A DNA stretch of 64,000 bases, from the NCBI GenBank assembly GCA_964481135.1, contig CAYZSW010000004.1, positions 20,110 to 84,109 of the forward strand, given 5' to 3'. The stretch's first letter is position 1. The number at the start of each line of letters is the position of its first letter. The notes under the pieces are model-generated. The model was not told the DNA's origin and made no database searches. It saw nothing but the letters and a program-made list of their open reading frames with translations. The DNA is from an uncultured Candidatus Saccharibacteria bacterium. Lineage in GTDB: Bacteria > Patescibacteriota > UBA1384 > JAMDBS01 > DAOVQR01. Positions 645 to 668 of the stretch are shown here, piece by piece. A program made the translations under genes and the position numbers.

Positions 645-668
645 CCTGTCTGCCGACAGGCAGGCTTC
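645..668. repeat. GC-rich palindromic repeat element (cctgtctgccgacagg-caggc family)
   Basis: Perfect hairpin cctgtc-tgcc-gacagg followed by caggc; related copies at 27395-27487, 51659-51695 and 61437-61482. Confidence 0.6.

Follow-up and report, generated by a model that had tools for sequence, protein, structure and literature searches.

What are the short GC-rich palindromes that lie between the genes of a Saccharibacteria genome, and how did they come to be there? We addressed this question for a stretch of 64,000 nucleotides from an uncultured Candidatus Saccharibacteria bacterium (contig CAYZSW010000004.1), which is called the window in the following. The window is part of a long contig of the candidate phyla radiation (CPR), and its housekeeping genes are those of a bacterium similar to CPR/Patescibacteria; four public assemblies contain the same DNA at 100% identity. 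Both strands were searched for CCTGTCTGCCGACAGG, allowing three mismatches at most, and the chance level was taken from the shuffled window. The core CTGTCTGCCGAC was found at exactly four intergenic sites (c1 to c4, Table 1), in both orientations, where 0.04 sites are expected from the shuffles. The 9-mer CTGTCTGCC is confined to the same four sites within the window. All four copies lie between open reading frames (ORFs) or RNA genes, each in a sharp local GC island of a window with 29.7% GC. The original prediction of a dispersed, strongly GC-biased palindromic repeat is thus borne out.

The unit of the repeat is not the 16-nucleotide core that had been proposed. The natural unit is the 20-mer CCTGTCTGCCGACAGGCAGG, usually followed by a C: removal of the 3′ CAGG requirement from the pattern used for viral contigs yielded few extra matches, which argues for 20 nucleotides and against 16. 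The perfect hairpin thought to be common to all copies is present in c1 only, and c1 is letter-identical to the 20-mer in other genomes; c2, c3 and c4 share the variant ...CCGACAAG... instead. Likewise, the extension GGCAGGCAAGG is found at 27.4 kb and 61.4 kb, and is missing from c1 and c3. We propose that the four sites are copies of a selfish, non-coding hairpin insertion module that is mobilised in trans and has CCTGTCTGCCGACAGGCAGG as its active form, a reading to which we assign a probability of about 0.6.

Precise insertion of a 20-nucleotide block

The 20-mer is inserted precisely, as a block of 20 nucleotides without target-site duplication, and almost only in intergenic DNA. In the empty-site search the two flanks of every instance were joined and the join was searched; paralogues were then read directly. 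Gelidibacter japonicus (locus L096) contains tandem units of 69 nucleotides, among which an empty unit, GGATCCAAACCCAAAACTC, is followed by a filled one, GGATCCAAACC[20-mer]CAAAACTC. The flanks of the filled and the empty unit are identical in 50 of 50 bases, and a third unit carries a copy with one mismatch. A metagenome-assembled genome (MAG) of the Rhodothermia (L078) has five empty units (...CGCTYTCGCTCAGGATGAC) and one unit with the 20-mer between TTTCG and CTCAGG. At two further loci the intact genes for tRNA-Arg (L113) and tRNA-Leu (L114) are empty, and partial 5′ tRNA copies located just upstream contain the 20-mer in their D-loop. Four more loci (L075, L085, L088 and L124) have the 20-mer in 5′ fragments of tRNA-Leu, ahead of small GIY-YIG ORFs and an intact tRNA-Leu gene. 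Altogether, all filled and empty versions differ by exactly 20 nucleotides, with an ambiguity of at most one or two C residues. The sequence GGATA[20-mer]GAATA in L113 sets both boundaries of the element. These paralogue pairs come from other genomes than that of the window, and none of them has a target-site duplication.

The 20-mer is over-represented at the tips of existing hairpins, which include its own copies, related hairpins (siblings, see below) and the D-loops of tRNA fragments. One 20-mer lies within the loop of another in L045 (CCTGTCTGC[20-mer]CGACAGGCAGG), and three loci (L040, L073 and L118) have it in the loop of a sibling hairpin. At L080 and L056 it is located at the tip of a host hairpin, of which uninterrupted versions occur in other contigs. 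Flanks that are complementary over at least 5 bp were found at 13 of 145 sites; 2.3 such sites are expected, and the maximum in 200 shuffles was eight.

Analysis of the position of 125 genome-locus instances showed that 86 are between ORFs and 24 near the ends of the locus. The remaining 15 are inside crude ORFs (at least 100 amino acids), mostly at the edges of ORFs that are over-extended. Flank statistics for 145 non-redundant instances revealed weak biases only: A at position −3 (50%), A or C at −1 (72%, with T at 7%) and C at +1 (59%). No other conservation was detected outside of the 20 nucleotides in these instances, which have no flank in common.

Spread, folding and the copies in the window

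To see how far the 20-mer extends beyond the window, one genome per species of GTDB (596 Gb) was scanned for exact matches, a count that is a lower bound. CCTGTCTGCCGACAGGCAGG was found in at least 120 stretches of species-level genomes, where an arithmetic estimate with equal base frequencies gives about one by chance. The contigs have GC contents from 31 to 67% and unrelated flanks. Among the matches listed, roughly half of the hosts are Bacteroidota, including the isolates Galbibacter orientalis DSM 19592, Gelidibacter japonicus, Winogradskyella maritima, Niabella insulamsoli, Flavobacterium undicola, Flavobacterium arsenatis and Flavobacterium soyangense. Patescibacteria are represented by Saccharibacteria, Falkowbacteria, Roizmanbacteria, Peribacteria and others. 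Further hosts belong to the Nitrospirota, Deltaproteobacteria-type MAGs, Planctomycetota, Omnitrophota, Marinisomatota, Bacillota and Actinomycetota; in addition, the cyanobacterium Sphaerospermopsis NIES-73 (Nostocales) and one MAG of the Woesearchaeota (DPANN archaea) carry the 20-mer. No other protein is more than 75% identical to the window BipA (best named relative: Candidatus Berkelbacteria, 70%), and the closest usable relative, a 22-kb stretch with 31% GC and a BipA of 73% identity, has no copy.

The 20-mer is also present in phages. A scan of IMG/VR with a pattern covering three of the window copies matched 28 stretches of viral contigs (about 30 viral contigs overall), and each of them has the same 20-mer CCTGTCTGCCGACAGGCAGG. 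These contigs have GC contents of 38 to 66% and unrelated flanks, and several contain three to five copies. One multi-copy contig is a genuine structural module of a tailed phage (terminase, sheath, connector), in which the 20-mer occupies short intergenic gaps. Controls of equal composition run on the viral contigs gave no match for the reversed 20-mer and one match for the loop-flipped 20-mer. No tRNAs were found at the viral 20-mer loci. Collections of cultured phages and of plasmids contained no 20-mer, and a 42-nucleotide composite described below gave chance-level matches there.

A third setting are the tRNA-linked GIY-YIG cassettes. Each of the five small GIY-YIG ORFs in Table 1 immediately precedes an intact gene for tRNA-Leu or tRNA-Arg and is itself preceded by the duplicated tRNA 5′ fragment with the 20-mer in its D-loop. 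The tRNA fragments of L088 and L124 have additional mini-hairpins, and the cassettes of L075 and L113 are tandemly repeated. Cassettes of this type are known here from Balneola and Flavobacteriia; the GIY-YIG units have the appearance of mobile endonuclease cassettes with tRNA genes as their targets.

Three registers of folding, which overlap, are possible for the 20-mer as single-stranded DNA. The first pairs CCTGTC with GACAGG (6 bp, loop TGCC), the second pairs CTGCC with GGCAG (5 bp), and the third is a full-length stem of 8 bp with one G·T pair and the 4-nucleotide loop CCGA (−5.7 kcal/mol). Rarer siblings keep the frame N6-TGCC-N6′-CAGG with compensatory changes in the stem, for instance CCCGCC...GGCGGG, CCTGCC...GGCAGG and CCTGAC...GTCAGG, and permuted control frames gave no match. 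Older copies have decayed, as near-perfect variants of the 20-mer at other loci and the window copies c2 to c4 show.

A longer relative is the 42-nucleotide composite palindrome CCTGCCTGCCGGCCTGTCTGCCGACAAGGCAGGCAAGGCAGG (−16.2 kcal/mol, z = −4.1), which looks like a variant of the 20-mer nested within a sibling hairpin. It recurs with differing flanks in metagenome contigs of low GC content (L177, L193, L198, L261, L211, L173/L175 and L168; 36-42% GC), where it is often followed by heptamer repeats of the type AATCCNA. A metagenome scan with CGACAAGGCAGGCAAGGC returned mainly irrelevant DKAGKA-coding DNA of GC-rich genomes and about ten useful low-GC matches. Positions 61437-61466 of c4 reproduce the 3′ 30 nucleotides of the composite; the 'CAAG' variants of the window therefore belong to this longer relative, with c1 as the canonical short form.

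Copies c2 and c4 form a paralogous composite of about 72-78 nucleotides (74% identity, opposite orientation) with the same order of parts: the hairpin variant is followed by the 9-nucleotide repeats CNGNCAAGG and these by a common tail. Copy c2 is 100% identical in four assemblies. Copy c3 folds only weakly (hairpin z-score about 0) and abuts a tandem heptamer. We infer that c1 is a young or intact copy and that c2 to c4 are older or variant ones. A fifth relative, at 19905, is a fragment of a sibling hairpin that breaks the D-loop of a 22-nucleotide tRNA 5′ fragment. This tRNA fragment is identical to tRNA-Val at 17 of 22 positions and is located 7 nucleotides upstream of the intact tRNA-Val gene, a layout like that of L114 (tRNA-Leu) and of the GIY-YIG cassettes of L075, L085, L088, L113 and L124. 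Thus, the window contains one intact copy, three worn or variant copies and the 19905 fragment of a cross-phylum family of very small hairpin inserts. A partial duplicate of the tRNA-Pro 3′ end, 30 nucleotides from c1 and 120 nucleotides downstream of tRNA-Pro (731-807, minus strand), is not a member of the family; it may represent the scar of an attachment site, or else a pseudo-tRNA in decay.

Table 1. Copies of the hairpin family, neighbouring features in the window, and GIY-YIG ORFs next to the 20-mer at other loci (these five rows use the coordinates of the respective locus).
Feature	Position	Strand	Match to CCTGTCTGCCGACAGG (mismatches)	Sequence and setting
c1	645-664	+	645-660, + (0)	intact canonical 20-mer CCTGTCTGCCGACAGGCAGG, then C at 665; between tRNA-Gly and tRNA-Pro
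c2	27388-27465	-	27442-27457, - (1)	variant hairpin CCTGTCTGCCGACAAGG (27441-27457, minus strand), 9-nt repeats CNGNCAAGG, tail of about 35 nt; between convergent typA/bipA and a 93-aa ORF
c3	51662-51682	+	51662-51677, + (2)	decayed, TCTGTCTGCCGACAAGTCAGG; divergent lepB/lgt intergenic region
c4	61429-61506	+	61437-61452, + (1)	CCTGTCTGCCGACAAGGCAGG (61437-61457), (CAAGGCAGG) x2.4 to 61470, tail as in c2; lies 53 nt beyond the stop of a 649-aa ORF
Sibling-hairpin fragment (fifth relative)	19905-19938 (fragmentary relative 19905-19916)	-		CCTGCCCGCCAG on the minus strand
Tandem heptamer	51631-51659	+		(TAGTAGC) x4.1, directly abuts c3
Partial tRNA-Pro 3′-end duplicate	593-613	+		TGGTCGGGGTGCCG then CCGGGAC, T-loop missing; context, not a family member
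Small PDDEXK_3 nuclease ORF	48367-48771	-		between priA and the AMMECR1 gene
GC-rich island 3′ of rplT	53294-53409			116 nt; three or four short hairpins: CCCAGGGC/GCCCGGGG, GGCGGA/TCCGCC, TCCGCGGG/CCCGCGGA
GC-rich islands on either side of the tmRNA gene	28811-28942 and 29249-29334			the second contains a long GC hairpin immediately before the tmRNA 5′ end
Inverted duplicate of the tmRNA 3′ end	28856-28896			80%, relative to 28902-42
Direct repeat	17473-17772 and 18334-18633			300 nt, 99% identical, 861 nt apart, in the 1891-aa ORF 13909-19584
GC-rich island between thrS and deoC	36366-36437			72 nt, overlaps the predicted GTG start of deoC
GIY-YIG ORF, L075	6380-7219			
GIY-YIG ORF, L085	4811-5188			
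GIY-YIG ORF, L088	2048-2422			
GIY-YIG ORF, L124	326-730			
GIY-YIG ORF, L113	3771-4594			

Tandem repeats of 7-8 nucleotides accompany the 20-mer in other genomes at 11.7% of the sites, compared with 6.5% in the intergenic background (p = 0.03, marginal). A strong association with heptamers appears against the whole-sequence background only and was rejected, being marginal against the intergenic one.

Other small hairpins were observed alongside the family. The recipient hairpins of L080, L082, L056, L249 and L078 recur in unrelated genomes (e.g., GAGAYTCTGAAACAAGTTCAGARTGAC, TTCCCGCCTTCGCGGGAATGAC and GGTCCTTCGCTYTCGCTCAGGATGAC), a sign that environmental bacteria may hold a larger repertoire of small GC-rich hairpin modules. 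The island 3′ of rplT is probably another cluster of such modules; it has the exact 11-mer CTACGGCGGAT in common with positions 631-641 beside c1, and it contains no Rfam family at the gathering score. The window also has GC-rich islands next to the transfer-messenger RNA (tmRNA) gene and between thrS and deoC (Table 1). Judging by the 300-nucleotide direct repeat, a domain inside a giant surface-type protein was probably duplicated recently; the ORF concerned has no Pfam match.

A proposed mobilising activity and competing explanations

Because the 20-mer encodes nothing, copying by an activity that acts in trans has to be assumed. This activity would read the sequence as well as the hairpin, since new copies are letter-perfect and since the orientation of the loop and the CAGG tail matter. 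The element would be non-autonomous and copied by a candidate trans-acting enzyme, which probably works on single-stranded DNA as the HUH/Y1-type enzymes do on hairpins of repetitive extragenic palindromes (REPs) or of the insertion sequences (IS) IS200/IS605. The preference for hairpin tips together with the lack of duplication fits action on single-stranded DNA, and also template switching at stalled replication. Fresh copies would be letter-perfect and would decay with age, and transfer between lineages could plausibly rely on phages and GIY-YIG cassettes. The GC-richness of the copies in a genome of 30% GC would come from a foreign origin with a fixed sequence, not from a local function. 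Most likely the window copies are passengers, and any effects on transcripts would be incidental.

To analyse the neighbourhood of the 20-mer, the 3,771 ORFs that surround the matches (155 loci) were clustered all against all. The only recurrent neighbour that is not a housekeeping gene is GIY-YIG, at eight of the 155 loci; the rest is housekeeping synteny. Small, possibly selfish nuclease ORFs of the PDDEXK_3 type are common in phyla that carry the 20-mer, and the window has one (Table 1), with a homologue near the element in one of the 155 loci. A jackhmmer search showed no enrichment of PDDEXK_3 or four-helix-bundle ORFs near the 20-mer.

Several results count against a mobilised module and have to be set beside the filled and empty pairs. 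Clustering around the 155 loci yielded no mobilising enzyme, and apart from the PDDEXK_3 ORF the 64 kb of the window hold housekeeping genes only. Host hairpins are obvious at just 9% of the sites, and targets are only weakly biased. Next to co-directional genes, 34 instances have the orientation of the genes and 25 the opposite one, which is a mild skew only; by eye the skew is stronger at viral loci. A gene-strand skew may reflect a strand-asymmetric process and is not decisive. For two phage loci, a gapped flank-pattern search for empty sites returned filled versions only. No orthologous filled/empty pair was found for the window copies: apart from the identical strain, the nearest relative is non-syntenic with a BipA of at most 75% identity; insertion in the window genome is therefore argued by analogy, as there is no close relative for an orthologous empty-site comparison. 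Finally, the hosts other than Bacteroidota and the cyanobacterium are MAGs, and the breadth of phyla could for this reason be due in part to mis-binned contigs.

A function in cis at selected sites would explain the repeat without mobility: the hairpin could be a terminator or attenuator, an RNA-stabilising structure, or an operator to which a conserved protein binds on DNA or RNA. The hairpin is stable, many phage copies are located 20-60 nucleotides upstream of a ribosome-binding site and ATG in gene orientation, and the mild gene-strand skew at gene-flanked sites points in the same direction. The terminator idea of the original prediction holds for c1 at most; c1 passes a rule for T-tails that is lenient, and does so on the other strand than the adjacent tRNA genes. 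Copies c2, c3 and c4 lack a T-tail and received no terminator-like call, and the gene pair at c2 is served by a separate terminator-like hairpin (27522-27549); an intrinsic terminator was rejected as identity of the element. The predicted position next to tRNA genes or terminators accordingly applies to c1 (tRNA genes) and c2 (that hairpin), and does not apply to c3 and c4. Copies occur in convergent, divergent and co-directional settings on both strands without a common neighbouring gene, all window copies but c1 are degenerate, and a regulatory role is implausible for copies in pseudo-tRNA fragments, in other copies of the element or in tandem junk repeats. We regard a cis-element as rather unlikely. 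The copies could also be non-mobile debris, that is, stubs of a prophage, an integrative element or a GIY-YIG cassette which was acquired horizontally and deleted down to its GC-rich parts. The position of c1 30 nucleotides from a partial tRNA-Pro 3′ end resembles an attachment-site scar, the 19905 fragment has just the placement within a tRNA 5′ fragment that the GIY-YIG cassettes show, phage genomes contain the 20-mer, and c2 and c4 share about 50 nucleotides beyond the hairpin. Debris leaves the clean 20-nucleotide differences between otherwise identical repeat units unexplained, as well as the self-nesting in L045 and the absence of a shared flank in 145 instances, so that we consider this origin unlikely.

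The original prediction compared the repeat to REP elements and bacterial interspersed mosaic elements (BIMEs) or to miniature inverted-repeat transposable elements (MITEs). A lineage-specific family of REPs, BIMEs or REP doublets (REPINs), maintained by a REP-associated tyrosine transposase (RAYT) encoded elsewhere in the genome, would fit short GC-rich extragenic palindromes that form hairpins in both orientations. CTAC/GTAG strings are indeed found near c1 (CTACGGCGGAT, 631-641) and c3 ((TAGTAGC)4 contains GTAG). However, many phyla as well as phages carry the same 20-mer, unlike lineage-specific REPs; positions −10 to −1 of the 145 instances have no fixed base and thus no GTAG head, and there is no doublet layout. 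A Pfam search of the ORFs called in the 64 kb revealed no transposase, integrase, reverse transcriptase or Y1_Tnp/RAYT gene. A REP family is quite unlikely. A MITE does not fit an element of only 20 nucleotides without terminal inverted repeats around a body and without target-site duplication. An artefact of sequencing or assembly (adapter or hairpin-oligo contamination, chimeric joins) would give an identical short sequence in many unrelated data sets, as a reagent contaminant does. The 20-mer is placed inside long contigs with host sequence on both sides, though, and is present in isolate, complete or chromosome-level assemblies from different centres (the complete chromosome of Niabella insulamsoli, Sphaerospermopsis NIES-73, Galbibacter DSM 19592) and in the chromosome-level MAG assemblies OY781970.1, OZ244140.1 and OZ250162.1. 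Moreover, c2 is the same in all four assemblies, and decayed and nested copies as well as units with and without the insert exist. An artefact is highly improbable.

The repeat was also compared with known RNAs. Rfam searches of the whole window at gathering thresholds and, around the four copies, at relaxed settings (E up to 10) gave no meaningful match; the relaxed matches were eukaryotic miRNAs and snoRNAs at chance level, far under threshold. The view that the copies are not part of a known structured RNA therefore stands. An overlap with tRNA or tmRNA was rejected, the window copies being outside the called genes. The CTGCC...GGCAG stem resembles that of type I-F CRISPR repeats. The idea of a solitary CRISPR repeat was set aside, as neither an array nor a cas context is present and the similarity ends after 5 bp.

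Relation to known systems and implications

Of the systems known to us, the small dispersed repeats (SDR1-8) of the Nostocaceae come closest to the inserted 20-mer in their description. In work from 2008 Elhai and co-workers reportedly described, in Nostoc punctiforme and its relatives, families of about 21-27 nucleotides, some of them palindromic, that are precisely inserted and nested and were proposed as the smallest mobile elements. They are also said to occur among heptamer repeats. The 20-mer is similar in size class (about 20-27 nucleotides, although one nucleotide under the range of 21-27 just given), in its palindromic families, and in precise insertion and nesting (L096, L078, L113, L114, L045, L040, L073 and L118). 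A link is plausible since the 20-mer adjoins AATCCAA heptamers in the Nostocales genome L065. Passages in the literature describe SDRs as 'some 20 bp long' and possibly mobile (PMC2884548) and state that SDR5 inserts precisely within HIP1, between its third and fourth base (PMC4390886); SDRs are cited in a further paper (PMC3116915). According to a passage in PMC5861425, SDRs are reported from Nostocaceae only, with none in other HIP1-rich cyanobacteria. This restriction differs from the 20-mer, which is found in many phyla, phages and CPR and has a single match in the Nostocales (L065).

Other systems share part of these properties. REPs, BIMEs and REPINs are short, GC-rich, extragenic palindromes as well, dispersed and non-coding, presumably mobilised in trans with single-stranded hairpins as substrates and without duplication. 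They are, in contrast to what was seen here, lineage-specific and coevolved with RAYTs, have a GTAG/CTAC head, are often inverted doublets and number hundreds per genome; the 20-mer contains neither GTAG nor CTAC. MITEs are likewise non-autonomous, intergenic and able to form hairpins, but they are 50-500 bp long, end in inverted repeats that stem from a parent IS and are flanked by a target-site duplication; the 20-mer has no parent IS. The ends of IS200/IS605 elements and palindrome-associated transposable elements (PATEs) resemble the 20-mer in hairpin recognition, single-strand 'peel and paste' and the lack of target duplication; they have two different ends and a strict 5′ target of 4-5 nucleotides, whereas the 20-mer is a single hairpin with a weak bias. 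The GC clusters of yeast mitochondria, which are 30-60 bp long, belong to a eukaryotic organelle and often have AT/TA target duplications, are an analogy only: they too are short, GC-rich, palindromic inserts in an AT-rich genome, nested and presumably mobile, and they have no sequence relation to the 20-mer.

Sequence strings of the 20-mer family were absent from eight million full-text papers, and a literature search gave nothing relevant on tiny mobile hairpins, CPR palindromes or GIY-YIG ORFs with tRNA fragments. What appears to be new is the range, an exact 20-mer common to Bacteroidota, CPR, several other phyla and phages. The family belongs to the very small dispersed palindromes of the SDR/REP type and is of more interest than a REP family of one genome.

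A broader proposal can be made tentatively, and we consider it possible rather than probable. The 20-mer and its N6-TGCC-N6′-CAGG siblings would then be the smallest known mobile DNA that spreads horizontally. It would insert without duplication into single-stranded hairpin loops such as tRNA D-loops and its own loop, in many phyla, in phages and possibly in DPANN archaea, by means of a widespread candidate enzyme of conserved specificity, and the SDRs of Nostoc would be one local instance. If this is true, a sequence of 20 nucleotides without coding capacity keeps letter-perfect copies across phyla, and the lower size limit of mobile DNA would be pushed well under that of MITEs and REPINs. 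It would also imply that an activity so far unrecognised, and of broad distribution, cuts and joins DNA or switches templates at hairpin loops. Such an activity would be relevant for genome plasticity, as tRNA-like fragments are disrupted, tandem repeats seeded and stable hairpins placed in AT-rich genomes; it would bear on the exchange of non-coding DNA between phages and their hosts and might provide a compact tool for sequence-specific insertion. For the annotation of CPR and Bacteroidota genomes, GC-rich islands that consist of these inserts or their siblings carry the risk of being mistaken for non-coding RNA genes, terminators or tiny ORFs.

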